Source: a virus. Taken from it: a DNA stretch of 64,000 nucleotides. A model generated the notes under the pieces. That model saw only the letters and a program-made list of their open reading frames with translations. It was not told where the DNA came from and searched no databases. The stretch is taken from positions 96,001-160,000 of the IMG/VR virus record IMGVR_UViG_3300023202_000142; one strand, 5' to 3'. Positions 915-58,235 of this stretch are shown here, piece after piece. The translations under genes and the position numbers were made by a program. Within the stretch, counting starts at the first letter, position 1, and each line of letters starts with the position of its first letter.

Positions 915-944
915 TTGACGTCATCCGATGAAGTGTACTAAGTT
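915..944 (+). promoter_or_regulatory. Putative sigma70-type promoter upstream of SSB
   Basis: TTGACG at 915-920; weak -10 (CTAAGT at 17 bp or TAAGTT at 18 bp spacing); intergenic. Confidence 0.5.
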
Positions 945-948
945 CACA
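932..948. promoter_or_regulatory. Degenerate operator copy AGTGTA-CTAAG-TTCACA
   Basis: 3 mismatches to TGTGCA-N5-TGCACA; GTG begins 12 nt after the -35 hexamer, the same offset as at the HTH promoter. Confidence 0.45.
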
Positions 949-1026
949 TTTCTAACCAACGAGGGCACGTAAATAGCGGTCAAAGAAGACCCAAATCAGA
1001 CGCCCTACGAAGCAAGGAGAAGCGAA

Positions 1027-1968
1027 ATGGCATCACGAAGATCTGGAGGACGGCGTTCGTCGCGTCGAGGTTCGAGTAAGGGTTCTGGCCGTAAGGGCAG
1101 GGGCTCGCGTCGATCGCGCAAGGATGACGCGCCTGAGCGCGATGAGGCTGCCGGAGGCGAGGAGAATCAGTGGTTCTCGCGCGGCGCTGACAGCCTGGAG
1201 AAAGAGAAGGAAGACAAGAAAGGGCAGTATCGCGGTGGCGGACCCAGGGAGTTCGACCCGCGGCGCATCTTTCGCTGGTTCATTCCGAACACCGAACTGG
1301 GGGAGCCCAAAGAGGTCCTGTTCCTCGAATCGGACTGTCTCAACGCCTGGATGCATCATTTCAAGAATGATGGGAGGTGGGGCAACTGGGAGACGTGTCC
1401 GCGGCTGACGGGCATGAAGGATGAGCACGGGGATCCGGTGAGCTGTCCGCTGTGCGACAAGGACGACAACGTCTCGACGTCGCTGCTGGGTCACTACACG
1501 ATCCTCGATGTCACGGGGTGGGACGGCGGCGACGGTCATCGCATGGGCCTGAAGATCCTTCCGGCGAAGGAAGAACTGGTCAACAAGCTCGCCCGTCGTC
1601 GTGACAAGTTCCTCGATGACGGCCATGACGGTCTGTTCGGCGCGCTGTTTACCGTGGTTCGAGACACCAAAGACTCGGACAACTGCGGCAACGACTGGGC
1701 GTATGAGGAGCACGTCGACGTCGAGCGATTCCTCGAAGACAACTTCGAGGCGATCGCGACTGGCCTGGACTGGTTCCCCGAGGGCTGGTTTTGGGAGGGC
1801 GAGGGAGATGATCGCGAGTACTGGCTCGGTCCGTTCAAGTGGATGGATATCGTCGCTCCGCGCGACCCTGCGGTGATCGCAGACATCATCGGTGCGAACT
1901 ACGATGGTGCCGAGTTTGATCCCGATGATCTCGACGTCGGCGCCGACGACGACGACCCGGGCTACTGA
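1027..1968 (+). CDS. Single-stranded DNA-binding protein, T4 gp32-like
   Basis: H..C..CPLC zinc site (WMHHF..TCP..CPLCD), basic R/S/G N-terminus, acidic C-terminal tail, AAGGAG RBS, replication context. Confidence 0.75.
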   Translation: MASRRSGGRRSSRRGSSKGSGRKGRGSRRSRKDDAPERDEAAGGEENQWFSRGADSLEKEKEDKKGQYRGGGPREFDPRRIFRWFIPNTELGEPKEVLFLESDCLNAWMHHFKNDGRWGNWETCPRLTGMKDEHGDPVSCPLCDKDDNVSTSLLGHYTILDVTGWDGGDGHRMGLKILPAKEELVNKLARRRDKFLDDGHDGLFGALFTVVRDTKDSDNCGNDWAYEEHVDVERFLEDNFEAIATGLDWFPEGWFWEGEGDDREYWLGPFKWMDIVAPRDPAVIADIIGANYDGAEFDPDDLDVGADDDDPGY

Positions 1969-2009
1969 GCCGATTCGGCGCGGTCGGCGTCATAGCCGGC
2001 CGCGCCCTT

Positions 2010-2090
2010 GCGGCACCCACTTCCGAGGAACCGGAAGATGCGGTCGACACGGCTTGTCGTGCTCTCCGCGGGTGCCGCTCCCCCTGGGAG
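2010..2090 (+). ncRNA. Candidate cis-regulatory RNA: three-way junction plus SD-occluding hairpin
   Basis: P1 GCGGCACCC/GGGTGCCGC (2010-2018/2070-2078), P2 CTTCCG/CGGAAG, P3 GCGG/CCGC with CGACA/TGTCG; CTCCC/GGGAG hairpin covers the RBS. Confidence 0.45.
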
Positions 2091-2095
2091 CAACC

Positions 2096-2656
2096 ATGGA
2101 CGTCAATCAGGCAGATGAGATGCTCGACATGTACCGTCGGGCGGTGGAGCAAAACGCCGGAAACGATCGGCTGAGGCCAGTCGCGGGCACGGTGCACGTG
2201 CAGCTCATGCCGGAGATTAATCGGCGTGGTGACCTCATTCTCCCGGGTAAGCCGAAGGCCCTGGGTAACCGGCGGATCTGGTGTCGGTATGGCACTGTGA
2301 TCAATGTTGGTGCGGATGTGCCGATGCTGGGGGTCGGTGATGTCGTATTCTTCTCAAACATGTTGGGCATCCGGTTCAGGGGCTACGGTAATCCGTTGAA
2401 GCTCAAGGATCGCGATGTCGCCCACAGTGACGATGAGATTCGTATCCTGAAGGTGAGCGAGGAGTACACCGAGGTCTGGGGGCGATACACGCCTCATCGC
2501 GTCGGGACAACGATCACCTTCGACAAGCCTGGCGATGGCGTCATGACCGCCGAGGTTGTTGACGAGAGCCCCGCCTATGGCGGCTATTTGAAGATTCGGG
2601 AGGGCGACCACGAGTCGTGGGTCCCATATAAGTGGCTGTGCGATGCTGAGGAATGA
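2096..2656 (+). CDS. groES: GroES/Cpn10-like co-chaperonin with C-terminal extension (start reassigned from 1892)
   Basis: LRPVAGTVHVQ..GDLILPG..GTVINVG..VGDVVFF fits the Cpn10 pattern; GGAG RBS before ATG 2096. Confidence 0.8.
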   Translation: MDVNQADEMLDMYRRAVEQNAGNDRLRPVAGTVHVQLMPEINRRGDLILPGKPKALGNRRIWCRYGTVINVGADVPMLGVGDVVFFSNMLGIRFRGYGNPLKLKDRDVAHSDDEIRILKVSEEYTEVWGRYTPHRVGTTITFDKPGDGVMTAEVVDESPAYGGYLKIREGDHESWVPYKWLCDAEE

Positions 2657-4184
2657 GGTGCGAATCGATGGTCGGGCCTGGGTTCCGCGGGCTGTGCTGA
2701 CCGACAGTCAGGTCAACGCGATTCGCCGAAGCACTACGGTGCGTCTGCGTCCCGGCCCGTATGACGAGGCTGGGGCGGTTATTAAGATGGCCGCCGAGGG
2801 CGATTTCGCGATTGGGCTCCCCAGGGGTTTCTATCACCGGACAGCTCGCGGTGGTCTGCCTGTGGAGTACGATGTTACCGAGACGAGACGAGTGCTGGTC
2901 CCGGCCGTTTTTCCCCGTGATGACATGCAGCGCGAGGGGGTCGACACGTTGTCGAAGTACCTCTTGAGCGAGCGCGTGCGCGAGGGGATGTTGTTGGCCG
3001 CGACCGGCACCGGCAAGACAGTCATGGGGCTTCTGATTGCCGCGAAGATGGGCATGACGACTTTGATTGTCGTGCACACCACGATGCTACTCAACCAGTG
3101 GGTGGAGCGTATCAAGACGGAGCCCGGGGTGTTCCCCGATGCTGATGTCGGAATCTTCCGCGGTGATGACGAGGAGTTCGGCGGCGACTACGACATCGTT
3201 ATCGCGATGGTGCAGACGCTGGCGAACCGTTCCGCCGACCACCCCATCTTCGACTGGCCAGGTTTCATCATCGTTGATGAGTGCCACCGCCTCGGCGCCC
3301 CGACGTGGAATGAGGTTGCACACTACTTCAAGGCGGCGAAGCGTTTGGGGCTAACCGCGACACCGCGGCGAAGTGATGGCGGTGAACAGCTTTTTTTCGA
3401 CACCCTCGGGGATATCGTGTGGGAAGCGAAGGCCCCGATGATGGTGCCTCGCGTGCGCAAGGTGAAGACGGCGTTCCGGTTCAAGAAGGACTCCTATCCG
3501 TTGCACGTCGAGACGACGATCATGGTCCGGGATAGCGCACGCAATGCGTTGATCGTGCAGGAGATAGCGCTCGCAAGGAAGAGCTATCGGCATATCCTGG
3601 TCCTGGTGACCCGCACGGAGCACGCTCTGCGCTTGAAGCGGCTGATTAATGCTCAGGTGTCGGATGCCAGCGTGGGTGTCTGTGTCGGCTCCTGGTACGC
3701 CGATGAGGATGACGCGTTTGAGTACTGCGAGAGCGCGAGAGACTACCAGGATAAGTTCAAGACTGACGAGGGTAAGTACTCAGTCGCGCACAACGAGGAC
3801 AAGGACCGCTGGGAGACAGGGGATCTGATCGATGACGACATCCACAAGGTGTCTTGGAAGGACAAGGACCGTGGCAAGATCAAGAAGGTGAAGCCCCGGC
3901 GCCGCCGTCTCTCCGAGGAGGCGATCAAGGAAGCCGTGCAGTGTGACATCGTGATCGCGACTGAAAAGATGGTGAAGGAAGGGTTTGATGTGCCGAGCCT
4001 GGACACTCTTTTCATCACCATGCCGACGTGGGACCCGGTGCAGTCGACCGGCCGAATTCTTCGGCTTCATGAGGAGAAGCAGGAGCCGATCGTCACCCAC
4101 TTCGTCGACGATAATGTCAAAAAGTATGTTCGGGCATGGCACTCATCACGTAAGCACTACCAGGACCTCGGGTCGGACATATGA
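2643..4184 (+). CDS. Superfamily 2 DNA helicase (UvsW-like); start may be GTG 2658
   Basis: AATGTGKT, DECH, LGLTATP, EGFDVPSLD and QSTGRILR motifs. Confidence 0.92.
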   Translation: MLRNEVRIDGRAWVPRAVLTDSQVNAIRRSTTVRLRPGPYDEAGAVIKMAAEGDFAIGLPRGFYHRTARGGLPVEYDVTETRRVLVPAVFPRDDMQREGVDTLSKYLLSERVREGMLLAATGTGKTVMGLLIAAKMGMTTLIVVHTTMLLNQWVERIKTEPGVFPDADVGIFRGDDEEFGGDYDIVIAMVQTLANRSADHPIFDWPGFIIVDECHRLGAPTWNEVAHYFKAAKRLGLTATPRRSDGGEQLFFDTLGDIVWEAKAPMMVPRVRKVKTAFRFKKDSYPLHVETTIMVRDSARNALIVQEIALARKSYRHILVLVTRTEHALRLKRLINAQVSDASVGVCVGSWYADEDDAFEYCESARDYQDKFKTDEGKYSVAHNEDKDRWETGDLIDDDIHKVSWKDKDRGKIKKVKPRRRRLSEEAIKEAVQCDIVIATEKMVKEGFDVPSLDTLFITMPTWDPVQSTGRILRLHEEKQEPIVTHFVDDNVKKYVRAWHSSRKHYQDLGSDI

Positions 4185-8145: not shown

Positions 8146-8147
8146 CG

Positions 8148-14139: not shown

Positions 14140-14154
14140 TAGCACCCGGGTGCA

Positions 14155-14526: not shown

Positions 14527-14578
14527 CATGGGGCGTGCTGTGGGAGCAGACGGGCGCAACGCGGTGCGGAGTCAAGGA

Positions 14579-17942: not shown

Positions 17943-17990
17943 CCAGTCAGTTGCGGCACTGGCTACAACAATCGAACCAAGGAGTTACAC

Positions 17991-19511
17991 GTGAATAACG
18001 TGATGCACGAGGCGAGAGGCGTCGACCCGGGTGGTCGCAACCTCCAGGACCTCGGATATATCCAACAGCTCACTGAGAAGTGGAGTCCGTATCTGGGCAT
18101 GATCCCGGAATCAAATTCGGCGTTCGACACGCGCAGGGCCTCGATGGCCATGCTGCTGGAGAACACCTGGAACGACATCCTGTCGACGGCAGGTCGTCGG
18201 TCCGCACAGCACCTCAACGAGGCTGACGCCTCGGTGACCGGCGCCATCGCGGACTACACCCAGACCATCTTCCCCGTCCTGATGAGGGTCTTCCCGAACC
18301 TCATCGCGCATGAGCTGGTAAGCATCCAGCCCATGGCGGGTCCCGTCGGTGCCGTGTTCTACTTCGAGTACAAGCACGCGACGCAGAAGGGTCGGGTCCA
18401 GGTCAACGACAACCTCATCGAGACGTTCGATGAGCACTACAGCTCGGAGTTCATCGACAACGAGCTGGTCGCGAACGGAAACGGGACCGATTTCGGTGGC
18501 GGTGGTGCCGCCCTGTCGGCGACGCTGACGTTCACGCCGGTTCTGCCGCTGAACACCAACGTCAGTGATCCGCAGATTCGCGTGCGAATCGTGGAGATCG
18601 ACAACACCGGCGCTGAGGTCCAGGAGGCCATCGACGACGGTGCCGGTGGGTTCACCGGGGATGTCAGTGCGGGGTCCATCGACTACACGACGGGCGCCAT
18701 CACGGGCTTCCTGTTCACGGCCGCTCCCGCAGCGACCAGTGAGGTCGCCGCGTTCTACTTCTACGACTCGGAGAACAACGAGCAGGTGCCCAGGGTCACT
18801 CTGGACATCCAGCTCAACGAGATTCGTGCGAAGACGCGCAAGCTGAACATCGAGTGGAGCGCAGAAGCTGCCGACGACCTCCGTGCCCTTCACGGCATCG
18901 AGGGCGAGGGTCAGCTTCTCGCTGGTGTTTCGAACGAAATCGGGCTGGAAATCGACCGCGAAATCCTTCGGGACATCGAGTCGAACGTCAGCATCACCGA
19001 CACGTTCAATCGCACCGGTGCCCCCAGCGGCATCAACGAGCTGGACTACCTGCGCACGCTGCTCACGAAAATCACGACCATCGGGTCGAAGATTCACAAG
19101 AACAGCAAGCGCGCGCCGGCCAACTGGCTGGTCACGTCGCCCGAGGTCGCCGCGCTCTTCGCGCAGTTCCAGGGCCACGGAGACTTCGTGCCGGCCGCCC
19201 CGACTGAGGAGCGCCCTTCGTCGTACGGCAACATCACGTCGGACTACGGCATCTTCCGGTACGGCAACCTGATGCAGCGCTACGCTGTCTACCAGGACCC
19301 GTTCATCACGGACTCCACGGTACTCATCGGCCTCAAGGGCCGTTCGTATCTGGATGCAGGCTACGTGTACGCTCCGTACATCCCCCTGCAGATGACACCA
19401 ACCTTCCTCGACCCCGCAGACCAGTCGTACAAGAAGGGTCTTCGGACGAGGTACGCGAAGAAGCTGCTTCGCTCGTCGTTCTACGGCAAGGTCACCGTCC
19501 AGAACCTGTGA
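17991..19511 (+). CDS. Major capsid protein, T4 gp23-like, with ~105-aa insertion
   Basis: VSIQPMAGPVGAVFYF, KTRKL..WS.EAADDL..HG, EIGLEIDREIL, GYVYAPYIPL, GLRTRYA. Confidence 0.97.
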   Translation: MNNVMHEARGVDPGGRNLQDLGYIQQLTEKWSPYLGMIPESNSAFDTRRASMAMLLENTWNDILSTAGRRSAQHLNEADASVTGAIADYTQTIFPVLMRVFPNLIAHELVSIQPMAGPVGAVFYFEYKHATQKGRVQVNDNLIETFDEHYSSEFIDNELVANGNGTDFGGGGAALSATLTFTPVLPLNTNVSDPQIRVRIVEIDNTGAEVQEAIDDGAGGFTGDVSAGSIDYTTGAITGFLFTAAPAATSEVAAFYFYDSENNEQVPRVTLDIQLNEIRAKTRKLNIEWSAEAADDLRALHGIEGEGQLLAGVSNEIGLEIDREILRDIESNVSITDTFNRTGAPSGINELDYLRTLLTKITTIGSKIHKNSKRAPANWLVTSPEVAALFAQFQGHGDFVPAAPTEERPSSYGNITSDYGIFRYGNLMQRYAVYQDPFITDSTVLIGLKGRSYLDAGYVYAPYIPLQMTPTFLDPADQSYKKGLRTRYAKKLLRSSFYGKVTVQNL

Positions 19512-19542
19512 GCCTGTTGCCCCGGGCGGGGCATTGATAATG

Positions 19543-19559
19543 TGTGCACGGATTGCACA
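19543..19559. promoter_or_regulatory. Perfect operator copy TGTGCA-CGGAT-TGCACA
   Basis: Intergenic palindrome; TG-A-TAATGT extended -10 at 19535-19543 on +, TTGACA at 19566-19561 on -. Confidence 0.65.
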
Positions 19560-19686
19560 TTGTCAAGCCCCGGGGGCCAGGTTTCACCCATAGTCTGCAA
19601 TCCGGCAGACGTACCGACTCAGACTCGTTGTTGCCTCTGGCGCCACGATGTCCGAGACTTGGGAGGGCTAACCGCCCTCCCTTTTT
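19549..19686 (+). ncRNA. Candidate small structured RNA downstream of the capsid gene
   Basis: 9-bp stem CGGATTGCA/TGCAATCCG, long hairpin 19618-19656, ends in an intrinsic terminator. Confidence 0.45.
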
Positions 19687-19690
19687 CTTT
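19661..19690 (+). terminator. Rho-independent terminator
   Basis: GGGAGGGC-TAACC-GCCCTCCC followed by TTTTTCTTT. Confidence 0.9.
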
Positions 19691-19702
19691 GCAGGAGCAC
19701 AC

Positions 19703-20284
19703 ATGAAGAACCGATTGCGTCTACGCCGTGACCAGTCGGGCCAGGTGTTTCTCGGCAGTTACGAGTACAACCAGCCCGAGCGCATCAGCCTGACCCAGGA
19801 CCAGCCCTTCGTCGATGAAGCGTTGCGGGCCAAGGGGTTCACGGCCGAGGAAATCGAAGAGCAGATGGAGGGGTACGAGATTTACGTCCCCCAGATCCTC
19901 GCCAGGGTGCCGCAGCCCGTTCCGGCTTCGGACCTCGCAGCCGAACTGCAGGCTGCGGTCTCTGACCCCGAGCCTGACCCTGAACCGGAGGACCTCGCGG
20001 AAGAGACCGAGGACCCGGCCGAAGAGGATGACGAGGACGACGAGGACGATGTGGCGCCAGAGGACATCGCGGATGACCCCGAGGAGCTTCAGGTCGACGA
20101 CTTCAATGATGTCCAGGTGCCGCCGGTGTCGGAGATCAAAGAGATGACGCGCGACGATCTCGCGGGGCTTGCCGAGCGGCTGGGGGTCGAGAATGAAATC
20201 GAGGGTACCGGTGCAAACGGGTACGTCACTGTGCCTGATCTCAGGCGTTTTCTGATTCCGTACGTCGCGGAACTTCGAGACTGA
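19703..20284 (+). CDS. Acidic-linker protein with small C-terminal helical module (start reassigned from 19544)
   Basis: AGGAG RBS; D/E/P linker; C-terminal DDLAGLAERLGV..EGTGANGYVTVPDL resembling E3-binding/HeH-type modules. Confidence 0.75.
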   Translation: MKNRLRLRRDQSGQVFLGSYEYNQPERISLTQDQPFVDEALRAKGFTAEEIEEQMEGYEIYVPQILARVPQPVPASDLAAELQAAVSDPEPDPEPEDLAEETEDPAEEDDEDDEDDVAPEDIADDPEELQVDDFNDVQVPPVSEIKEMTRDDLAGLAERLGVENEIEGTGANGYVTVPDLRRFLIPYVAELRD

Positions 20285-20292
20285 GGTAGCCC

Positions 20293-29060: not shown

Positions 29061-29448
29061 TGTTAACTGGAAAAAGGTCTCGTATGTCGTGATCGCTGTC
29101 TGGATCGTGGGGATCCTGGGGTACGATTTGATTCCAGCGCTCACCTCCGAGGATGGCGACACGATCTCGGAGGTTGCTCGGGATCTGGCGTGGGGCTGGC
29201 AGACGCTGCCGGCCTTCGTGATGTTCATGATGGCTCACCTGTTCTGGCATCGGAAGGGTGGTCGGTATTTCCAGTGGTCGTGGGTGTTCATCCCGGTTGT
29301 GCTGGCTGGGACTGTCTTGGCAGACATTTTTCTTGTCGGAGACCTCAACCCGTTGTGGGTTTGCTTGGTGTACTTCCCGCTGGGTCATCTGGTTTGGCCC
29401 CAGGACTCCGAGGAACGGCTGCACCCGGGTGCAGGGAACGAGTCATGA
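29053..29448 (+). CDS. Small integral membrane protein (about 4 TM segments, holin-like)
   Basis: Four hydrophobic stretches; overlaps neighbours. Confidence 0.65.
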   Translation: MPDVNWKKVSYVVIAVWIVGILGYDLIPALTSEDGDTISEVARDLAWGWQTLPAFVMFMMAHLFWHRKGGRYFQWSWVFIPVVLAGTVLADIFLVGDLNPLWVCLVYFPLGHLVWPQDSEERLHPGAGNES

Positions 29449-37246: not shown

Positions 37247-37897
37247 GTGGCCCGGCCGCTGACTGATAACTATTTTCAGAATTTCAGGTTCCACGTCCTT
37301 GACGTGACGCTTTCGCGGGGGGCTCTTGATCTCCCGCTTCTTGCTCTGAGCCCCCAGCTCGGCTTTCAAACGGTCTCGGCTCCGACGATCAACGTCGAGG
37401 TGACGCAGATCCGTCCTGGCAACTCCCCGTTTCCTGTGAGTGTCGCCAAGGAGGCGTCGATCTCCAACGTGACGTTGACGCGCGGTGTTCTGACAGGTGA
37501 CCAGGAGTTCTATTCGTGGATTCGCCAGGCGATCTATGGTCGTGGCGCGTTTCGTCGAACTCTTCTGTTGGTGCAGATGCATCGTATGCTGAGAGGCGAT
37601 GACGGTACGCTAGCGCGCTTTGGGGACCTCGGGGCCATAGTGGCCACATCCCTGGGTCTCGGCGCCGCAGGGGCCATTGGCGACGGTGTGGCAACCGTCG
37701 CGGATGCGGCTGGTCTCGACGTCGACCTCTATGCGAGGATTTGGACGTTGTGGGACGCCATCCCGGTCCGATACCAGCCTGCCGGAACGTTCGATGCCAA
37801 CGACGAGGGCATTACGCTGCAGGAGCTGGAACTCGATGTTGAGTTCGTGTCGGAGATCAACCCGGGACCGTTCCCGATTTCGAGAGGTTGGACATGA
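37247..37897 (+). CDS. Tail tube protein 2 (paralog)
   Basis: QNFRFHV, GFQTVS, NVTLTRGV..FYSWI, WTLWDAIP..Y. Confidence 0.88.
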   Translation: MARPLTDNYFQNFRFHVLDVTLSRGALDLPLLALSPQLGFQTVSAPTINVEVTQIRPGNSPFPVSVAKEASISNVTLTRGVLTGDQEFYSWIRQAIYGRGAFRRTLLLVQMHRMLRGDDGTLARFGDLGAIVATSLGLGAAGAIGDGVATVADAAGLDVDLYARIWTLWDAIPVRYQPAGTFDANDEGITLQELELDVEFVSEINPGPFPISRGWT

Positions 37898-38247
37898 TGA
37901 CGATTCAGCGGTTTTTGCGACTCGTTGAGGACGAGGGCTTCGAGATCGAAACGCGTGCTGTCGGTGATGGCTGTCGCACCAGGGTCGGTGACGCGGTTCT
38001 TTACTACGGTGACGATGGTTTTCGGTTTGCGATTCGCGAGGGGCGGCGCATCACGTCCCTGGAGCGCGTTGTGGAGGGCCTTGGGTTCTCCGAGCGCGGG
38101 TTGCTGACGGAGGCCGTAGCAACGACTACGGCCAACGTGGCAGCCTACCAGGTTCCTCTTGGGACTCGTGTCGACGACTTCATCAACCGTTACGGCGACG
38201 AGGGAGACGATGATGGGCCTGCCCATCTGATGAAGCGGAAGTTCTGA
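37894..38247 (+). CDS. Hypothetical protein
   Basis: ATGA overlap with tube 2 stop. Confidence 0.6.
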   Translation: MMTIQRFLRLVEDEGFEIETRAVGDGCRTRVGDAVLYYGDDGFRFAIREGRRITSLERVVEGLGFSERGLLTEAVATTTANVAAYQVPLGTRVDDFINRYGDEGDDDGPAHLMKRKF

Positions 38248-38261
38248 GCACGAATTGCACA
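38245..38261. promoter_or_regulatory. Operator copy TGAGCA-CGAAT-TGCACA
   Basis: 1 mismatch to consensus; ends 5 nt upstream of TTGACA. Confidence 0.6.
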
Positions 38262-38266
38262 GTGCG

Positions 38267-38295
38267 TTGACAGTCGATTGCGGCGGTGAAATACT
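38267..38295 (+). promoter_or_regulatory. Sigma70-type promoter upstream of the tail chaperone gene
   Basis: TTGACA-17 bp-AATACT with TGn extension. Confidence 0.7.
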
Positions 38296-38321
38296 CGGCC
38301 AATCTCAACGAAGAGGGGCCC

Positions 38322-39443
38322 ATGTCCGAGTCCGCCAAAGCCAAAGCGCCACAGCCTGAAGTTCAGCAGGAGGCTGAGATCCGTCGTCGTGGTCCTGCAG
38401 AGGAGACGGCTCGACGAGAAGCGACTGACATGCTGGACGACGACCAGGTTCAGCAGATTCTCGAAAAACACATGCTGGGGGCGATCGATCGGTCGTCGAT
38501 TCAGGAGCGTGGTCGTGATGTTTTTGCGACCGTCGAGCTACCTGGCGGCGTTTTCGTCGGCGACCAGCTCGTCAAAGAGGTGGTGATTCGGGAGATGAGC
38601 GGCAAGCAGGACATGCTCCTCATGAACACCGAGGGCTCGACGGCGGAGTCCCTGCTGAAGATGGCGATCGGTTGTGTCGAGTCGATCGGGGATATCACTG
38701 AGCCCAGGGACGTTGCGAAGATTCTTCGCGGCCCGATGCTCATTGGCGATTTCAGCTACCTTCTCATGCGAATTCGGCAGCTAAGCGTAGGCGACAAGAT
38801 CGCCTTCACGGAGACCTGCCCGAAGTGCGAGGTCCAGGGCAGCTACGGGCTCTTCATTTCGAATCTCGACGTCTACGAACCCGTGGAGGCGGTGACACCG
38901 CAGGACCGTCGAGAGTCACTGGACATCGACAAGTGGGGAACAGGGAAGCCCTGGACGTTCAAGTGGCACTGGATGACGCAGGCTGACTCGGGATACCTGA
39001 ACCGGCTCGTCGACTATTACCGGGCCAAGGAAGAGGGTCGCACGCGCGGGCACAAGCAGGCGCGCAAGGTCAAGGGCGCGATGAGCATGATGGACCTCAT
39101 CAAGGCCGGCCTGGATCCGATGAGCGCAGCGATCATCGCTCGCCTGGATCGGGTTCTGGAGCCACCGCGGGACATCGATGGCAAGTTGGTGCGCGACGAG
39201 GTCGCGCTGGGGCGGTCGTCCAAGCCGAGGGACGGAGAACTGTCGCTCGATCAGTCCGTGAAGTACGTTCGGGAGCTGCCCACGGCGATTCGCATCTTCC
39301 TGTGGAACCAGCTCGACACGAACGAGCCGGGAGTCGACAACGAGGTCGAGTACCAGTGCGACAGTTGTGGTCACATCAACGAGTCTGTCATTCATCCGAC
39401 TGACCCAAATTTTTTCTTCCCTACGGAGGTCGACATCGACTAG
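38322..39443 (+). CDS. Tail assembly chaperone / baseplate hub protein (T4 gp26-like) (start reassigned from 38286)
   Basis: VVIREMSGKQD, GDFSYLLMRIRQLS, CPKC and CDSC; upstream of tape measure. Confidence 0.8.
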   Translation: MSESAKAKAPQPEVQQEAEIRRRGPAEETARREATDMLDDDQVQQILEKHMLGAIDRSSIQERGRDVFATVELPGGVFVGDQLVKEVVIREMSGKQDMLLMNTEGSTAESLLKMAIGCVESIGDITEPRDVAKILRGPMLIGDFSYLLMRIRQLSVGDKIAFTETCPKCEVQGSYGLFISNLDVYEPVEAVTPQDRRESLDIDKWGTGKPWTFKWHWMTQADSGYLNRLVDYYRAKEEGRTRGHKQARKVKGAMSMMDLIKAGLDPMSAAIIARLDRVLEPPRDIDGKLVRDEVALGRSSKPRDGELSLDQSVKYVRELPTAIRIFLWNQLDTNEPGVDNEVEYQCDSCGHINESVIHPTDPNFFFPTEVDID

Positions 39444-39628: not shown

Positions 39629-39638
39629 GAGAGGCCGC

Positions 39639-39986: not shown

Positions 39987-39990
39987 CGCC

Positions 39991-43425: not shown

Positions 43426-43433
43426 GGTAGGGC

Positions 43434-46079: not shown

Positions 46080-46082
46080 AGC

Positions 46083-49428: not shown

Positions 49429-49436
49429 GAGCTATC

Positions 49437-50138: not shown

Positions 50139-50139
50139 G

Positions 50140-50556: not shown

Positions 50557-50569
50557 TTCAGGAGTCTAG

Positions 50570-53371
50570 GTGGCTGAGTACGGTTTCGGCTACGGGCCCT
50601 TCGGGGCGGGGCCTTTCGGGCGCGCGCATACGTCAAAGGATGCGTTGTGGCGTCGCTCGATCCCTCTGCGTGAGAAGCAGGATGACGCCGAGAATGACAA
50701 CCATCTGGAGCGGTATCTCGAAGTAGCGGCTGAGGCACTGGATCGTATCCTGGAGACCGCCTGGGGGTTTCCCGAGCAGATCGACCCTGTAACTGCCCGA
50801 TCTGGTCAGGAGTACTCAGAAAGCTTGACGCTCATCGACATTGAAGATCTCGGAGCCGGTGTGGTGCGTGTGACGGTCGACCCGTCACAGACCGAGATCG
50901 TCGAGATCATGTTCGGGGCTTCGACGGATCCTGATACCGATAACCTCAGACAGGACGGCTGGGTCGCCTCGGTTGATGGTTTTGACATCTTCCAGATCTC
51001 CAGGGTCAGGGCCTACGATGAGGAGTCCGACCCCGTAGGTGCGGCAACATTGGATGTCGTGACGAATCGCGAGATCACGTCGCCGCTGGAGGTCAGGCCG
51101 CCGGACATCCTGTTTCGGCTGGCGTCGAACTTCGCTCCGACTGTCGATCGCGCTGACCCGCCGGATTACTCTCGGCGCGCCCTGTATCGGCACCGGCTGA
51201 TCCGCGACCTCAAGGTCTCGACGCGTCTTTTCGAGTTGCTTGGTGCGATCTATGGCTTCGACGTCGAGGTCAGCGGCCTCTATTGCATCTCGGAAGCCTG
51301 GTACAACGCGCTGCTCGAAACGGATCCGTTGAATGCGTTTGAGCTGCCAGAGGGGTCTGGCAAGTACTTCACTGACATTCCGCTCTTCGGCCACCTCTAC
51401 GACCAGGTGCCTGCCGATGTCATTCCGGCTGATCTGCAGACGGACGCAGATTTTGCCATTGAGATTGGCCCTGCGGTAGAGGTCTCCGAGAACCGCTGGT
51501 GCTTCCAGGTAACCCCCGATGAACTAGATCGGGTGTTGGCACTGGGCTTCTGGCAGATCGTCGATGCTGATGGCGTCGCGCATTATATCGAGGAGGTCAA
51601 CCTATCGGAGCCGGTGACGGCCGAAGATACCGGGGTCGTGTCGACTGGGAGCAGGGGCCCGTACTCGCTTGTGGCTGACCGACCGCCGATGAGCGCGGGA
51701 TCGCTGGTCGTGACGTGGACCGACAAGGATCTAGTCACGAGGACAGCGACAGACGACGGAGTTGGCGCGCTGACGGGGGATGGGACGGGCACCGTCGACT
51801 ACACGACCGGCGATATCGAGATCACCACAGACGAGTTCACGGACGGTGGTACGCCGTCTGACTGGATTCCATCTGACAGCCCGATTGCGGGGCTTCCCTG
51901 GAATGACGCCTATGTGGTGGAGCCGGCCTCGACCGCCAACCCCAAGGGCGGCTCTGGCGCCTTTGACCCCGATGAGCCGTTTGTCGGGTGGATGGCTGGT
52001 GATGATGGGTATTTGGCTTTCACGGTGGATGGCGGCCAGACATGGGAAACCGACCCGGACTTTCCCTTCACCGAGGACGAACTGAACGGCGTCGACGGCG
52101 ATTTCGACACCACGGCGGGGTCAGACGTCACAGTCTGGGTTGTTGGCGAAGACAGGCTCAGCCAGGCCCTCCCTGGGGGCGTCTGGTATTGGTCTTATGA
52201 CAATGAGGTGTGGACGGAGGTTACGCATTCGGTTCCTTCTGGTTGGCGTGATGTCGCGGCCTTCGACGGGAGTAGCGGGGTTCTGTCGATTCTCGCCGTT
52301 GGGTACGGCGGTGAGATGGCGTATTACGACGGCACCACGATGTTGGCTACGGGGGCAGGAACCACAGCTAATGACCTCAATGCCGCGTCCATGGAGGACT
52401 CCGCGGCGCACCAGACGTTTGTTGTTGGTGACTCTGGCACCCTTCTGGAGGTCACCGCATGGGGTACTGTGGGGGACTTCGCAACGGCGACATGGACGGA
52501 CCAGTCGTCGGCGCTAGGCGGTGGTATCGCTGATGACCTTCGTGACATCTCGTTTCTGACGACTGATGCGGCAAAGGGCATCCTTGTCGGCGACAATAGT
52601 CAGGTCTGGATTACAACGGACAACGGCGCGACCTGGTCTTCGGTTGCAACGGGGTTTTCGAAGGATTGGGTCGCGTGCTTCTGGCAGGGCGCGACGGCCG
52701 GTGATTTCATTGTTCTTGCTGCAGATGACGGTACAGTCATTGTGTCCGTCGACCAGGGTTCGAGTTGGTCGACCTCAGACATTCCCGTGTTTGGGGACAC
52801 CCTGATCGGGGGCGCCGTTAAGGACATTGTCAATGGCACCGCGCACCCCTACGGCGTTCTGGTCGGGTCCAATGGGACGACCTGGTATTACGCCGAGGAT
52901 GGCAGGATCCCGGTGGCTGATTCTGGGAGTCCCTTTCTGCTCGACTACACGATCGACGAGGTCTGTGTCATCTCCGATGGGGCTCCTGTTGCGGGGTCGG
53001 GTTTCCTGCGGGCTCAGGCCCAGTTCTTATGCAACAGGGATTATCGGCCCGCGGCGGTGTATCGCATTGTCGCTGAGCCCGATGAGGTGCTCACCGAACC
53101 TGGCGCCGTTGTTACGAACCTCGTTGACCGCATCGAGGAGAAGCTGCGACTCTATGTGCCGATTCACATCCGGCTTACCGAGTTCGTCGTGTTCCAGGTC
53201 GCGACAGTGGATCTGTTCGGAGACAGTTTCTCGCTCAGCGGTGAGGATTTCATCCTGGATGAGGCCGAGGCGGATGCGATTGGTGGAACTAGATTTGATA
53301 CGACGCCGGCAGATGTTGAGCCGCTGGACGAAGGCGCATTCTTCCTCGAAGGTACGTTGACGATTACGTAG
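50570..53371 (+). CDS. Baseplate wedge protein (gp7/tail I-like) carrying an Asp-box beta-propeller
   Basis: LERYL..L..I..F..IDP..RLASNF pattern; TVDGGQTW, TTDNGATW, SVDQGSSW. Confidence 0.75.
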   Translation: MAEYGFGYGPFGAGPFGRAHTSKDALWRRSIPLREKQDDAENDNHLERYLEVAAEALDRILETAWGFPEQIDPVTARSGQEYSESLTLIDIEDLGAGVVRVTVDPSQTEIVEIMFGASTDPDTDNLRQDGWVASVDGFDIFQISRVRAYDEESDPVGAATLDVVTNREITSPLEVRPPDILFRLASNFAPTVDRADPPDYSRRALYRHRLIRDLKVSTRLFELLGAIYGFDVEVSGLYCISEAWYNALLETDPLNAFELPEGSGKYFTDIPLFGHLYDQVPADVIPADLQTDADFAIEIGPAVEVSENRWCFQVTPDELDRVLALGFWQIVDADGVAHYIEEVNLSEPVTAEDTGVVSTGSRGPYSLVADRPPMSAGSLVVTWTDKDLVTRTATDDGVGALTGDGTGTVDYTTGDIEITTDEFTDGGTPSDWIPSDSPIAGLPWNDAYVVEPASTANPKGGSGAFDPDEPFVGWMAGDDGYLAFTVDGGQTWETDPDFPFTEDELNGVDGDFDTTAGSDVTVWVVGEDRLSQALPGGVWYWSYDNEVWTEVTHSVPSGWRDVAAFDGSSGVLSILAVGYGGEMAYYDGTTMLATGAGTTANDLNAASMEDSAAHQTFVVGDSGTLLEVTAWGTVGDFATATWTDQSSALGGGIADDLRDISFLTTDAAKGILVGDNSQVWITTDNGATWSSVATGFSKDWVACFWQGATAGDFIVLAADDGTVIVSVDQGSSWSTSDIPVFGDTLIGGAVKDIVNGTAHPYGVLVGSNGTTWYYAEDGRIPVADSGSPFLLDYTIDEVCVISDGAPVAGSGFLRAQAQFLCNRDYRPAAVYRIVAEPDEVLTEPGAVVTNLVDRIEEKLRLYVPIHIRLTEFVVFQVATVDLFGDSFSLSGEDFILDEAEADAIGGTRFDTTPADVEPLDEGAFFLEGTLTIT

Positions 53372-53423
53372 GCCGGTGATTCTGCACAGGCGCTGTGCTA
53401 CAAAATGACGCGAAGGAGCATGG

Positions 53424-53939
53424 ATGGCACTGCGAGCTGCACTGACAGATCTGGGTAGAGAGTACCTGGCGCGTTTCATGGCGACGTATGACGACATCGC
53501 CGTCAATGATGGGTATCGCATCTTCCACTCCGTGAAGTGGGGTGAGGGTGGATTTCAGACAGTCTCAGGCATCGATGTTCCGAAGGATCCGAACCTGTTC
53601 GTGGCCAACACGGATCTGGAGATCATTGAGAACCCCGGGCTGTACACGCCGTATGACTATGCTTCCGGCCTCATTCCGATCGATCTGACGACGGAGGTGA
53701 TCTACACGGGCGGCGCGAACCAGAAGTTCAGGATCATTGCTCATCTCGATTCGTCAGAAGAAAATGACGATGGCTTCGGATCGAACCCGAGGTTCTTTGA
53801 GATCGGAATCTTCGATAACGCGCTCGCAACTGGTGTGGATGTCGCGGATCACATGATCGTGTACTGCACCTTCGATGGCTTTCTGAAAACGAACACTCGC
53901 ACGATCGATGTCGCCATCGACGTGCCTATGGCTCCATGA
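53424..53939 (+). CDS. Tail-collar/fibre attachment protein (P2 gpH N-terminal-like)
   Basis: LTDLGREYLA, VKWGEGG, FFEIGIFD..MIVYCTF. Confidence 0.65.
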   Translation: MALRAALTDLGREYLARFMATYDDIAVNDGYRIFHSVKWGEGGFQTVSGIDVPKDPNLFVANTDLEIIENPGLYTPYDYASGLIPIDLTTEVIYTGGANQKFRIIAHLDSSEENDDGFGSNPRFFEIGIFDNALATGVDVADHMIVYCTFDGFLKTNTRTIDVAIDVPMAP

Positions 53940-53946
53940 GGGACTC

Positions 53947-56850
53947 ATGACGATTCACGTAACGTCGGCGATCGACATCACCAAGGTGAAGACCAGGTGG
54001 GAGGAGCCTTATGTCTCTGAGGCGATCGACAAGATGATGTCGGTGCTCGGAAAAGGGGTTCACCATGGTTTCAGAATGACGTCGGACGGCGGCCAGATCG
54101 TCCGTCTGAGCCATGACACCGAGTACGGAGACTCCCTTGCCCTGATCCTCGACGAGAACCTCGGGCAGGCGTTTGAGTACCGCGAAGACACCGAGGCGAC
54201 CCTGGACCTCACACCTGTTAGCGCGGGTACTCGCGCCTGGGTGTTCTTGTTCGTTGACTACAGCGTTGGTGTCGCGACAACCGCGGAGGTCAGGGTCGCT
54301 GATGCTGCGGAGCTGGCAAACCCCTGGGTCAACCAGGCCCTGCCCCTCGGGACCGTTCGAAAGCCGTCGGCGGGCGCAATTGGTGACGGCGATATCGATC
54401 ATGGTTCCGGTGAATGGCTCGGTCTCGCCGGTGGGGATTCTTCACGCTGGGTTTCGGTTCATCAAAATGTCTATTTCGAGAAGGGCTTGGCCGGCTTTGA
54501 GTTGGGCGGAGCTGGTGTGTCCAGCTATCCGTTCGCTCAGGCGGACTATGTCACGATGGTGGGCGTCGGTGACTCTTATAAGGGTGATCGTGCCGCCAGG
54601 CTTGGGGATACTTCTGGTGCCCAGCCTTCGCCGGACACCGGCGAGCTAAGGATTGAGCTTCCACAGCTCCTGGAAAATGACATCGTATTCTGGCGGTTCA
54701 GAGCCAAGGCCGCTTCGGTCACCAATGGGGGCATCCTCCGAGTAGCGCTGGGCGCTTACTTCGACGAGACGATTCTTGACGCTGATCTCGGCTCCTATGA
54801 GCAGTTCGGGTATGCCGTCGAGATTACGTCGGATGCGGATGATCAGTCGCTGGACATCATCGCGGACCTCACCGCGGGCGTGACGGCGACCGGGCATTTC
54901 GACATCGATGAGGTCGAGGTCTACATTTTCCGGCCCACGGGGACTGTGGCTGCTGGCAACATGGACGTCGCAGGGCGATTCCTGATGGCTGATGCCGGCG
55001 GGTTCACCGCTCGTCTTGGGGCAGACTTCGGTTCCTGGAACCTCTCAGACGCCAACGCGTCCTTCGATATCACGGATGCCGCTGATGGCGGCCGGTTCGC
55101 CGATATTCCGGTCGGAACCACGTTGTCGCTTGTCGCTGGACTGAATCACGCGCTGCGCGGAGGTGGGGCCGCTATGGACCTCATGCATCCTAAAGCGGTG
55201 TTTGAGGGTGGCGAGGTCACCGATGGGACCAGTGGCGGTGCGAACGTCGATGTCTCGGCTCTCAAGGTTCGGACCGCTGCGTTGAGCCCCACCGTGGCTG
55301 GCGCTGTTGATCGCTACTACGAGCAGGATGCTGTAGTAGATCTTGCTCTCCCGGTCACATCTGGTGTCGAGGAGTTCTTCGTCACCTGGGACCCGAACGC
55401 AGAAGACTTCGTGGCCTACTTGACGTCTGATGTGACGTTCAGCTCCAACGAGGATGTTGTGATCCTCGCATATGTCGAGCACGACGGTGGTACGGGGCTA
55501 AATACTCGAATCATCGAGATGCAGGACTTCATCACCGATCTGGAGCGCAAGACGCCCATCACCGTGGGCGCAAGTGCCAACGCTCGCTTCTCTTCGTTGG
55601 AGGGCGCGCTTCGGATGGCCGATCAGTCGGGCTTCACCGGTACGAAAGAGATCGTAGTCACCGGGACGACAACCCTCGGGACGTCTTCAGGGATTGAGAA
55701 CGCACAGGCAACGATTCCAGTGCCGGACGGCATCGTGGTTCGGGGCGCCGGGGATGCGCGCGTCTCGGTATCCAGGACCTGGTATGACCCGACAGTCTCC
55801 CCGAAGGTCATTTTCGACCTTCCCGATGGTGGCGATGTCGTGTTCCGAGACCTTCTTTTCACGGTCGGGAATGGCACCGAGGGCGACATCGTCCTGTTCT
55901 CCAGCGCTGGTAACCCCAGGAAGGTGACGATCGCGAATGTTGAGGTCGAGATGACGGGCTCACAAGCTCTGTGGCGTGTCATCGACTGTGTGCCCACGCG
56001 GGCCCTCACGGTCCGGGACTGTTATTTCCAGTGCCGGTCTAGCACTGTAGGCACTCAGGCTTCCGATGCCGATGCTGCGTGCATCTGGATCGAAAACACT
56101 GCTCCGAACGCAGAGCTTGCGATCCTCATCGACGGCTGCTCGTTCGGTGGTGACGATCTCGGTGACGGCTTCACGTCGAGCGCCCAGGCGCTTCACATCG
56201 TCAGTGACACCTTGGGCGCCGATAACGTGACCACGATTCACATCACGAACACTCGTTTTCTGGAGGCCGATCTTCCGGTGGATCTCGACGGCCGGGTGAT
56301 CATGGACAACGTGTTCTCGTTGGTTCCGATTCATATCGATGCGGACAGCCAGGACATCTCTGTGGGGAACGTCGTGATGGATCTCTCGGAGTACGAGGGC
56401 CGCGCTGCTGCCCCGTCGTCAGAAGCTTTCAAGATCAGCTTCGCGAATCGAGGCACTGTGGCGAACGTGTCAATCAACGCGCCCAACTCTCCGGTGTCCT
56501 GGCAGGGGCTGGACCTCCCTTCATCCAGTGGATTAACGATCTCGAACATCAGCATCAAGCACGCGGACGGTGATGCGGTAGAGGTGTTCGGCTCGGAGAA
56601 CGTTGTGAGGGGCCTGAACTGTGAGAGCACCGGTGCAGATGCAGGTCGCAGCGGGCTTTCCGGCACTGCATCGCGGCTCGTAGCGGTCGGTGGGTATTTC
56701 GATGGGTATGCCGCTGATGCGGCGATCGACGCTTCGAACTTCACTGATTCCGTGATCTCCGAGATGGTGTTTCAGCAGGGTGGCGGAACGCCGCCCTACA
56801 TCTCATCTATCGGGGCCAACCAGACCGGCAACACCTACGAAGTGGCATAA
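53947..56850 (+). CDS. Tail fibre/tailspike with carbohydrate-binding-like region and C-terminal parallel beta-helix (start reassigned from 53908)
   Basis: Repeating V.I.N/V.F.D strands in the last ~400 aa; follows collar gene. Confidence 0.75.
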   Translation: MTIHVTSAIDITKVKTRWEEPYVSEAIDKMMSVLGKGVHHGFRMTSDGGQIVRLSHDTEYGDSLALILDENLGQAFEYREDTEATLDLTPVSAGTRAWVFLFVDYSVGVATTAEVRVADAAELANPWVNQALPLGTVRKPSAGAIGDGDIDHGSGEWLGLAGGDSSRWVSVHQNVYFEKGLAGFELGGAGVSSYPFAQADYVTMVGVGDSYKGDRAARLGDTSGAQPSPDTGELRIELPQLLENDIVFWRFRAKAASVTNGGILRVALGAYFDETILDADLGSYEQFGYAVEITSDADDQSLDIIADLTAGVTATGHFDIDEVEVYIFRPTGTVAAGNMDVAGRFLMADAGGFTARLGADFGSWNLSDANASFDITDAADGGRFADIPVGTTLSLVAGLNHALRGGGAAMDLMHPKAVFEGGEVTDGTSGGANVDVSALKVRTAALSPTVAGAVDRYYEQDAVVDLALPVTSGVEEFFVTWDPNAEDFVAYLTSDVTFSSNEDVVILAYVEHDGGTGLNTRIIEMQDFITDLERKTPITVGASANARFSSLEGALRMADQSGFTGTKEIVVTGTTTLGTSSGIENAQATIPVPDGIVVRGAGDARVSVSRTWYDPTVSPKVIFDLPDGGDVVFRDLLFTVGNGTEGDIVLFSSAGNPRKVTIANVEVEMTGSQALWRVIDCVPTRALTVRDCYFQCRSSTVGTQASDADAACIWIENTAPNAELAILIDGCSFGGDDLGDGFTSSAQALHIVSDTLGADNVTTIHITNTRFLEADLPVDLDGRVIMDNVFSLVPIHIDADSQDISVGNVVMDLSEYEGRAAAPSSEAFKISFANRGTVANVSINAPNSPVSWQGLDLPSSSGLTISNISIKHADGDAVEVFGSENVVRGLNCESTGADAGRSGLSGTASRLVAVGGYFDGYAADAAIDASNFTDSVISEMVFQQGGGTPPYISSIGANQTGNTYEVA

Positions 56851-56853
56851 CGG

Positions 56854-57693
56854 ATGGCAGATTTCCTCCAGTTCGCGACCGCGCCACCAGGCACGGACAA
56901 CGATCTGGCGAGGATGTTTCTCATCCCGCTGGACCCGAACTCCGGCGAGCGCCTTGTTGGTCCGCTCGGCGGTGTCCCCGGGATTCAGCCCGAGGATCTT
57001 CCGACGATCCAGTTGCAGTACTGGCCAGAGACCGTCACGTACACCCGTGGCGAGATCGGCTGGCAGCAGCGCAATGTGCCAGGGCTGTCCCATTCGCTGT
57101 ACCAGTGGACCGGGAACGGCTCACCGTCGTTGCAGTTCGAGTCCGTGTTCACGTCTGACCACGACCCAGCTTACACGCCGCTGGAGTCCGTGCTGCCGGA
57201 CACCGATCAGGGAACGATTCGAGACCTTGATCTCAATGAGGTGTCTGCCTGGTTCACTGCTGCCACAAACCCGCTGTATGCCGATGGCCCGACTGCAGAC
57301 ATCCCAGTGAACCCCCCGCCCGTGATCCAACTGGTGCCGGAATCGAGGGCGCCCAACGTTTCTGAGTTGGCAGGGGTTCAGTCACTGAATCTGGGTCCCG
57401 CGGTGACATCGTCGGCAACCCGAAACGCGAGGTCAGACTTTCCGATCGATGCGGGCCTCGGGTCAGCAAGTGAGATTGGCACTACCTTCTCGCAGATTGA
57501 TCGAGATTTCTTCGGCATTATCAAGGACTACTCGGTTGTCTATGAGAAGTGGTGGCCGAGCGGCGCGCCGCGGATCATTCGTTGCAACATCACCCTCCAC
57601 GAAGTGATTCAGCTTGGTGGCGAGATCTTGCCTCATGGGCGTGATCGCAACATCAAGGTTTTCAAGACCTATCGCCTGATCGGTAACTCTTAG
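56854..57693 (+). CDS. Tube initiator / CIS-tube-like baseplate protein (gp48/gp54-like)
   Basis: LQYWPETVTY, QWTGNG..LQFESVF, IIKDYSV.Y..W..G.PR....ITLHEV. Confidence 0.75.
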   Translation: MADFLQFATAPPGTDNDLARMFLIPLDPNSGERLVGPLGGVPGIQPEDLPTIQLQYWPETVTYTRGEIGWQQRNVPGLSHSLYQWTGNGSPSLQFESVFTSDHDPAYTPLESVLPDTDQGTIRDLDLNEVSAWFTAATNPLYADGPTADIPVNPPPVIQLVPESRAPNVSELAGVQSLNLGPAVTSSATRNARSDFPIDAGLGSASEIGTTFSQIDRDFFGIIKDYSVVYEKWWPSGAPRIIRCNITLHEVIQLGGEILPHGRDRNIKVFKTYRLIGNS

Positions 57694-57755
57694 GCACCAT
57701 TCGTGGGGGTTACCGCGTTGTCTGGCTCTGCGATTGGCCTGACAATGGGGGGACA

Positions 57756-58205
57756 ATGTACCTCGCTGTAGTAGACATATCGACATTGACGCAATTGTTC
57801 GCGGAGCAGGGGCCCCTTGCGATTGTCGCGGTCATCCTGACGTTTCTCGTGACGAAGTTCGTTGACTTCGTTATCGACAGGCGCTCGAAGGCTGTAGATC
57901 AGAACCTTATCGAGGGCACAACGATTCGTGCCGAGTTGCGCGAGGAGGTGGTGCAGCTCAAGCAGGACATCAAAGAACTGTCTGAGGAGGTCGACATTTG
58001 GCGGGAGAAGTATCTTGAGGTCCGGGATGACCTGGGGGTCACGAAGGTCACGCTGCACGCTGCGAGCGAAGAGTCGAGGATGTTGCGTCAAAAGTTGGTC
58101 GAGGTCGTCGAGGTCACGGAGGGCCAGGGCATTCACCTCGGCGTTTCTATTCGGCCGCTCATTGATTCAATCGAAGGCTCTATTGTGGATGGATCTGACA
58201 GTTGA
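57756..58205 (+). CDS. Putative holin or lysis accessory (one TM helix plus coiled coil)
   Basis: GPLAIVAVILTFLVTKFV then heptad region; upstream of endolysin. Confidence 0.55.
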   Translation: MYLAVVDISTLTQLFAEQGPLAIVAVILTFLVTKFVDFVIDRRSKAVDQNLIEGTTIRAELREEVVQLKQDIKELSEEVDIWREKYLEVRDDLGVTKVTLHAASEESRMLRQKLVEVVEVTEGQGIHLGVSIRPLIDSIEGSIVDGSDS

Positions 58206-58230
58206 CAGTGCTGATCGATGTGCACATAAT
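58202..58230 (+). promoter_or_regulatory. Near-consensus sigma70 promoter for HTH gene and endolysin
   Basis: TTGACA-17 bp-CATAAT. Confidence 0.85.
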
Positions 58231-58235
58231 GCACC
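58219..58235. promoter_or_regulatory. Operator copy TGTGCA-CATAA-TGCACC overlapping the -10
   Basis: 1 mismatch to consensus. Confidence 0.65.

Follow-up and report, generated by a model that had tools for sequence, protein, structure and literature searches.

The window analysed here is a stretch of 64,000 nucleotides (nt), bases 96001-160000 of the virus record IMGVR_UViG_3300023202_000142. The record is 185,324 bp long with 59% G+C and is about 90% complete. T4-type core genes were recognised in it by Pfam/PHROGs hidden Markov models (HMMs): the Gp23 capsid protein, a baseplate hub, a primase, a helicase and a UvsX-like recombinase. The gene map comes from our own crude gene calling, and both the promoters named below and the label 'early' are predictions. 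Four sites in the window resemble the palindrome TGTGCA-N5-TGCACA, and all four sequences are present where an original prediction had placed them. That prediction took them for the operators of a single repressor, an XRE-type helix-turn-helix (HTH) protein encoded at 58284, which would control four operons. We find instead that the sites belong to a much larger genome-wide set of promoter-operators, whose sequence also heads a predicted bacterial toxin-antitoxin cassette. The sites, their promoters and the adjacent features of the window are the following.

915-944, plus strand: weak sigma-70-type promoter; TTGACG (915-920), 18-nt spacer, TAAGTT (939-944); 8/12 consensus matches.
932-948: site 1, degenerate pair GTGTAC-N3-GTTCAC at about -19 to -3, over the -10.
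19518-19531, minus strand: GC-rich hairpin GCCCC-GCCC-GGGGC just 3' of the minus-strand promoter, read by eye from the sequence.
19537-19566, minus strand: class I promoter; TTGACA (19566-19561), 18-nt spacer, CATTAT (19542-19537); 10/12 matches.
19543-19559, minus strand: site 2, a perfect match to the originally proposed pattern; TGTGCAA-TCC-GTGCACA on the minus strand, at -29 to -13, filling the spacer.
19661-19681, plus strand: intrinsic terminator of the capsid-gene transcript; the antisense promoter lies between the capsid stop codon and this terminator.
38245-38261: site 3, TGAGCAC-GAA-TTGCACA, each box one base off; its matrix score (see below) is on the minus strand.
38267-38295, plus strand: sigma-70-type promoter, TTGACA-17-AATACT, 10/12 matches, with no box in the spacer.
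58202-58230, plus strand: near-consensus promoter ahead of the XRE gene, TTGACA-17-CATAAT, 11/12 matches.
58219-58235: site 4, a perfect GTGCAC with ATGCAC 9 bp downstream, at -18 to -2, over the -10.
58284-58559, plus strand: gene of the XRE-type HTH protein of 91 amino acids (aa); Pfam HTH_3 at 28.7 bits against a cut-off of 23, and PHROGs regulator families.

The promoters at 932, 19543, 38245 and 58219 are the only credible sigma-70-type promoters in the window, and each of the four sites adjoins a TTGAC(A/G) hexamer, as originally described. The distance of 12 nt from the -35 to the GTG holds at 932 and 58219; the two pairs share one register, with the pair at 932 sitting on the weaker promoter, which a stricter consensus scan did not call. 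Site 4 does cover the -10 CATAAT of its promoter, the strongest in the window. The C with which every spacer had been seen to start is explained as the last base of a GTGCAC box. The sites are intergenic, with one small reservation: that at 38245 overlaps the TGA stop codon of the upstream gene (37894-38247) and lies at about -57 to -41 of the next promoter.

Site 2 deserves separate description. Its 17-mer together with the adjoining CATTA is identical to that of a cassette at genome 52910, and the hairpin at 19518-19531 is the equivalent of the hairpin found in the leaders of other cassettes of the genome. Its promoter is the only promoter-like sequence in 18800-19900 and points antisense at the 3' end of the major capsid gene (17991-19511). 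What had been read as a 'post-capsid transcript' is a canonical minus-strand promoter, antisense to the major capsid gene, which may give rise to an antisense transcript of some 0.4 kb covering the 3' end of that gene. A comparison with Rfam gave no match to a known RNA in the window, the post-capsid gap included. As an observation of its own, two weak terminator-like hairpins lie 410-450 nt downstream of the antisense promoter (19075-19566, minus strand). As to the remaining promoters, the 915-944 promoter precedes gene 1027-1968 and a helicase/UvsX-like replication/recombination operon, the 38267-38295 promoter precedes a T4-type baseplate hub gene (38322-39443), and the XRE gene is followed by an endolysin-like gene (58549-59694). 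The earlier labels 'SSB' and 'tail chaperone/tape measure' for the first two had no HMM support; a helicase, a UvsX-like recombinase and the T4 baseplate hub were found.

The palindrome is enriched only when it is matched closely. With up to three mismatches to TGTGCA-N5-TGCACA, the window contains 28 sites against 22.6 expected, which is no enrichment; thus, by this count site 932, with its three mismatches, is not significant alone. With at most one mismatch there are three sites against 0.11 expected, and none of 100 shuffles reached three. The 185-kb record holds 31 such sites against 1 for the reversed control. Intergenic DNA makes up about 9% of the genome by the crude gene map and contains 29 of the 31. 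The same was seen in a scan with a position weight matrix (PWM), which had been suggested together with the original prediction as a check for intergenic enrichment and was trained on 28 sites, all outside the window. At 16 bits or more it found 43 positions genome-wide, 40 of them intergenic, against 0.7 in simulated sequence, and at 14 bits or more it found 51 (46 intergenic) against 3.3. Sites 932, 19543, 38245 and 58219 score 14.9, 24.9, 19.3 and 17.3 bits; the score at 19543 is the third-highest in the genome scan. GTGCAC hexamers number 82 in the genome, 56 of them intergenic, and form 12 pairs exactly 9 bp apart.

Altogether, there are about 45 sites in the whole 185-kb genome, and the four in the window are outliers of that set. 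Most of the others lie outside the window, where they belong to small genes in two regions of the genome, 3-90 kb and 168-183 kb. A regulon made of four named operons finds no support in these numbers, in the other strand used at 19543 or in the position of 38245 outside the core promoter. The original prediction saw a real operator, in that the motif is non-random, intergenic, promoter-overlapping and like a repressor operator; it drew the regulon too small and named the regulator without evidence, and a four-site XRE regulon is not supported.

The unit is a pair of GTGCAC boxes at a distance of 9 bp, flanked by T on the left and by A on the right. A single layout recurs at about 30 sites: TTGAC and 2 nt are followed by the palindrome of 17 bp, which fills the 18-bp spacer, and then by TAnnnT. 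Many of these spacer-type sites are followed by a GC-rich leader hairpin and a common ribosome-binding tag. In an alignment of 30 promoters, the information content is 1.8-2.0 bits at the box positions and 0.4-0.8 bits at the central three nt, and the 2 nt after TTGAC vary from copy to copy. The box adjoining the -10 is nearly invariant, and the other box retains its GTG and varies beyond it: left-arm positions 5-7 are variable (C 60%, A 80%, C 53%), and their partners 11-13 are G/T/G at 97-100%. A change in one arm is never compensated in the opposite arm, and selection therefore acts on the sequence, not on a hairpin. One of the 30 spacer-type promoters, at genome 89160 (L033:9160-9190), has a degenerate -10-proximal box, GTGCAT.

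The box pair is not fixed relative to the promoter. It occurs at -29 to -13, at -19 to -2, at -16 to 0 and at -9 to +9, and it lies within the polymerase footprint (-35 to about +10) everywhere except at 38245. At -16 to 0, the register of leaderless genes with the reading GTGCAC-ATG, it extends from the -10 as far as the start site, and at -9 to +9 it covers the start site. A register that varies in this way is in keeping with a separate protein that binds the DNA, and not with a contact made by sigma. We consider it likely that the palindrome is an operator for a repressor acting in trans. Two of the leaderless genes, at genome 40017-40727 and 45211-45990 (L031:1-5990), have the promoter -10 inside the palindrome; their products, of 236 and 259 aa, have N-terminal paired CxxC motifs and resemble zinc ribbons, and they gave no match to a PHROG family.

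The same unit was found in bacteria. A DNA scan with TTGAC-N3-GTGCAC-N3-GTGCACA, which we call a 19-base pattern, covered metagenome contigs and species-representative genomes and matched at least 120 metagenome contigs and 37 genome contigs; about 4 matches would be expected by chance in the genome collection (an estimate from 19 fixed bases, 596 Gb and both strands). Among the matches listed, a conserved gene for a protein of 125 aa starts 10-13 nt 3' of the palindrome in 110 of 157 loci, and the other matches lie mostly within long reading frames or at contig ends. An independent search that started from the protein gave 48 loci among about 185,000 species genomes, mostly of Acidobacteriota (many of them Vicinamibacterales) and Verrucomicrobiota; where enough upstream sequence was available, the two boxes were present in 44 of 45 loci. 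The DNA 5' of the -35 is unconserved across the cassette loci. Only 1-2 sites per genome occur in four of five cassette-bearing bacterial genomes, which points to local autoregulation: the element goes with the cassette and is not part of a regulon of global reach. By the same count, a global host regulator (e.g. with a LexA-type box) was ruled out. CRP sites have TGTG...CACA 8 nt apart; here the outer TGTG...CACA are 9 nt apart, which speaks against a CRP-type site.

The 125-aa protein has a weak Pfam match to DUF433, and its AF2 (AlphaFold2) model starts strand-helix-helix, as a ribbon-helix-helix (RHH) protein would. At the one locus examined, it is followed by a gene matching DUF5615/PIN, also weakly (21.1 bits against a cut-off of 23.8). 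A sequence search of the PDB with the antitoxin returned nothing useful. The cassette is thus predicted, from sequence and model, to comprise an antitoxin with an RHH-like N-terminus and a DUF433-like body, and a DUF5615/PIN-like toxin. Pairs of the COG2442/DUF433-PIN kind have been predicted to be toxin-antitoxin systems in which the antitoxin binds DNA (PMC2701414), and autoregulation is typical of type II operons (PMC4963859). We infer that the box pair would be the antitoxin's own operator, and two palindromic hexamers 9 bp apart would, in our reading, suit two RHH dimers. In the literature searched, neither a GTGCAC operator nor an operator of any other kind for DUF433 antitoxins was found.

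The comparison with related phages gave little help. The motif is not enriched in ten related IMG/VR records (0-1 sites each), so the conservation expected under the original prediction was not seen; these relatives are distant, mostly with 46-58% capsid identity, and they are too distant to inform on motif conservation. The related records contain neither the motif nor the 58284 gene. Two complete relatives share 41 of 283 genes with the phage and have no enriched palindrome of any kind. No close relative was found among GenBank phages, no phage relative among the pattern-bearing metagenome contigs, where nucleotide similarity does not extend beyond the motif, and no relatives were found of the proteins next to sites 1, 3 and 4. 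In the closest relative found, L028, the capsid gene has 83% nucleotide identity up to the stop codon; the intergenic stretch with the site-2 module has no counterpart there, and the gap of L028 has only a terminator-like hairpin.

We propose the following mechanism. The operator would be built into the host-type (sigma-70-like) promoters of the phage, and the protein bound to it would block RNA polymerase. The regulon would extend to about 45 sites genome-wide, mostly in small-gene regions that are presumably early, and the window sites would be the small number of these promoters that fall among the replication and structural genes. An antitoxin-family protein, made by the host or encoded in the missing 10% or so of the phage genome, would act in trans; it would either silence the phage promoters or be titrated by them. 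In the phage record itself, about 90% complete, no antitoxin homolog was detected by a tblastn-type protein search, by the family HMM on six-frame open reading frames or by hhalign of all proteins of 260 aa or less, and the Pfam domains RHH_1 and DUF433 were likewise negative. As the same promoter-operator heads the bacterial cassette, and type II operons are autoregulated, a protein of the antitoxin family is the most likely ligand; with its RHH-like N-terminus and DUF433-like body, judged from sequence, this family rather than an XRE protein is the best-supported natural ligand of the exact operator. Even so, we hold the identification of the phage ligand as an antitoxin-family protein to be tentative, falling just short of probable, and the full statement, from promoter-operator to antitoxin-family ligand, is one that we put forward with slightly more doubt than belief.

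Several points weigh against this proposal. The sequences establish the sites, where they lie, their selective conservation and their identity with the cassette operator; the antitoxin is only a candidate ligand, and its binding and repression in the phage are predictions. Foldseek with the antitoxin model gave no significant match. The cassette is rare, as the 48 loci indicate, so a phage depending on it would meet it only in some hosts. The similarity between phage and cassette is limited to the 24-bp promoter-operator, and blastn finds nothing longer; a different binding protein could have evolved in the phage after it acquired the DNA element by inheritance. A perfect GTGCAC box is present in 29 spacer-type promoters, but in 18 of these the second box is imperfect, and many phage promoters would therefore be weaker sites than the bacterial operator. 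The ten relatives at hand, all distant, are without the motif. Finally, each of five HTH genes in the phage genome has a site at or near its own predicted promoter, as autoregulated repressors would.

The first alternative is that a dimer of a phage-encoded XRE-type HTH protein represses a genome-wide regulon together with its own gene, the four-operon version with the 58284 protein being its narrow form. The five HTH genes lie at window 58284 and at genome 72244, 73992, 74296 and 78108, and the predicted promoter of each is overlain by a site: 58219 serves 58284, 74261 serves 74296 and 73992, 73028 precedes a leaderless operon that ends in the 72244 XRE gene, and 78387 precedes 78108 (minus strand, read by eye). 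The match of the 58284 protein to Pfam HTH_3 is above the cut-off, and the protein is similar to small repressors of the RsaL/MqsA-like kind, its look-alikes in the Atlas being small HTH_92/RsaL-like and MqsA-like proteins; it shares about 36% identity with the HTH protein encoded at genome 78108-78533, and from the sequence we read the two as paralogs. A 17-bp palindrome of 7-3-7 form also has the geometry of a lambda-type operator. However, sites are dense throughout the region that holds four of the HTH genes, so that a site per promoter is weak evidence. The conservation is not mirror-symmetric, with a weak inner left triplet and an invariant mirror partner, and the RHH-like/DUF433-like antitoxin is the only family that was found together with the exact operator. 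The viral and genome collections searched yielded no homolog of the 58284 protein in which co-variation with the motif could be looked for. What survives of the earlier claim is that the 58284 protein has an HTH_3 domain and a site over the -10 of its own strong promoter; nothing ties the protein to the motif, and four other HTH genes are placed alike. The four-operon version moreover ignores about 40 further sites and misreads the strand of 19543 and the position of 38245. We regard an XRE-type regulon of the broad kind as possible, albeit doubtful; that any XRE-type protein of the phage is the ligand seems about as questionable, and that it is the 58284 protein itself quite unlikely.

Two observations on the HTH genes stand apart from this argument. 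The region L032:12244-18533, with frequent strand switches, contains four HTH genes, a 224-aa serine resolvase, a CsrA-like protein of 77 aa and two ChaB-domain proteins, and most of its promoters have palindrome sites; such a gene content is not usual in T4-like phages and bears on a possible carrier-state switch. Inside the XRE gene of the window, at 58444-58459, lies a 16-nt GC-rich hairpin with one GTGCAC box (CCCGTGCACGCACGGG on the minus strand).

The second alternative involves no trans factor at all. The boxes would be passive or intrinsic to the promoter, in a cassette like the promoter-early stem-loop (PeSL) elements of T4-type phages that is spread by duplication and recombination, and they would persist by shared ancestry or by tuning promoter strength. 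The likeness is to a sigma-70 promoter and stem-loop beside small orphan genes (PMC2839356). Identical 17-mers recur in the genome (e.g. at 52917 and 115543), the site-2 cassette stretch lacks a counterpart in the closest relative, and the best-conserved box is the one that adjoins the -10, all of which this alternative would accommodate. However, neutral positions in the same cassettes have diverged and the boxes have not, the boxes are kept in 44 of 45 bacterial cassettes with differing flanks, and no single polymerase contact fits at least four registers relative to the -10. Passive boxes are therefore an unlikely explanation. The third alternative, in which the inverted repeat is a DNA hairpin or cruciform recognised by the polymerase, as hairpins are at the early promoters of phage N4, merits hardly any credence and was already disfavoured: a stem of 7 bp closing a loop of 3 nt could be formed by the perfect copies, but the stem is not maintained and arm changes are never compensated, the 18 of 29 promoters with a single perfect box cannot form it, and the flanking TTGAC and TAnnnT already fit host sigma-70-type recognition.

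Returning to the antitoxin-family proposal, its consequences for the phage may be considered. Neither an AsiA nor a MotA domain is detectable in the phage record, and another means of shutting off early promoters is therefore needed. There is no copy of the T4 late promoter TATAAATA anywhere in the phage genome. The shorter TAAATA has three copies genome-wide, one of them at window 970-975. It would be a further step to suppose that about 45 promoters of a T4-like phage have come to carry the operator of a host toxin-antitoxin system that is itself mobile, as a host-state sensor or carrier-state switch or as a decoy, and we consider this step somewhat unlikely. In the sensor version, the host antitoxin or the toxin-antitoxin complex would repress the early genes until stress-driven loss of the antitoxin, and no phage repressor would be required. 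In the decoy version, the many phage sites would soak up the antitoxin complex and so disturb an abortive-infection response. If the antitoxin binds, the sites would tie a phage programme of the lytic type directly, at the level of transcription, to a module of defence or stress, they would be the first operator for the DUF433 antitoxin class, and the cassette would offer a clue to the host (Acidobacteriota or Verrucomicrobiota) of an uncultured phage lineage. The phage ThyX was uninformative on the host, its best matches being Bdellovibrionales at 50-57% identity. If a phage HTH protein binds instead, the sites would show how T4-like phages without AsiA and MotA retire their early promoters.

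Some further features of the genome were noted. A second palindrome of 12 bp, GCACCCGGGTGC, usually with AG next, has 11 copies in the genome, seven of them intergenic; two are in the window (14142-14153 and 29421-29432) and nine elsewhere. One copy lies inside a cassette leader, directly 5' of the ribosome-binding site. At L029:7784-8730 there are 14 intergenic copies of a repeat of about 35 nt with the core CTGAG(C/T)ATCTAACCC(A/G)CTCAG, followed in most copies by CAGGGTGTGAAAC. The repeat starts are spaced 54-95 bp with gaps of varying length, and the whole looks like a phage-borne repeat array, of a kind related to clustered regularly interspaced short palindromic repeats (CRISPR) or other. 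GAGCTC and CAGCTG have no copies in the 185 kb and GTATAC only two, a scarcity that may reflect avoidance of restriction sites.

Among known systems, the phage element matches the promoter-operator of the bacterial cassette described above. Both have TTGAC, 2-3 nt, (T)GTGCAC-N3-GTGCAC(A) and then the -10, with the boxes filling the spacer, and some phage promoters are leaderless too, reading GTGCAC-ATG. They differ in that the phage has about 45 sites whereas a bacterial genome usually has 1-2, in that many phage sites have only one perfect box, and in that no antitoxin or DUF433 gene was found in the phage record.

Among phages, the PeSL cassettes have been described from the T4-type pairs RB49/phi1, T4/PST and KVP40/nt-1 (PMC2839356, PMC4122927). 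The phage matches them in its repeated sigma-70-type early promoters with an adjacent GC-rich stem-loop, in its small orphan genes and in its variable regions; PeSL cassettes also differ by insertion or deletion from one close relative to another, which is represented here by one case, the site-2 module against L028. The full PeSL-like form occurs in the window only at 19543. The PeSL stem-loop is described as a terminator of upstream transcription, whereas the stem-loop here lies in the leader, 3' of the promoter, and a word search of the 2010 paper (PMC2839356) gave no instance of 'palindrom', 'repressor' or 'spacer'.

A precedent for a phage governed by a host-encoded repressor is GIL01, whose promoters carry the operator of host LexA, so that phage transcription follows the stress state of the host (PMC4551915). 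As a small temperate tectivirus whose few SOS boxes are confined to a single promoter region, GIL01 is unlike a 185-kb T4-like phage with about 45 sites, and LexA is a universal regulator whereas the candidate here is the antitoxin of a mobile toxin-antitoxin system, with predicted binding. Operators dispersed through a genome are also familiar from temperate phages. Operators of the lambda, 434 and P22 Cro/cI type are palindromes of 14-18 bp, and P1 C1 has many scattered operators. The likeness lies in a small DNA-binding protein with many promoter-overlapping operators and, for lambda, in the 17-bp 7-3-7 layout; the difference is that those phages are temperate and encode the repressor, whereas no repressor gene is linked to the site here and the core genes are of T4 type.

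In T4 itself, early promoters are shut off through sigma appropriation by AsiA and MotA (PMC2988021). The task would be the same, namely to retire -35-dependent early promoters during infection, and an operator-based shut-off would be a different solution in a phage where no AsiA/MotA domain and no TATAAATA were found. Operator-controlled phage promoters and repeated early-promoter cassettes are already known. New with respect to the literature found is a T4-type phage in which almost every host-type promoter contains a palindromic operator of two boxes, an operator that is letter for letter that of a bacterial toxin-antitoxin cassette whose antitoxin has no homolog detected in the phage record.

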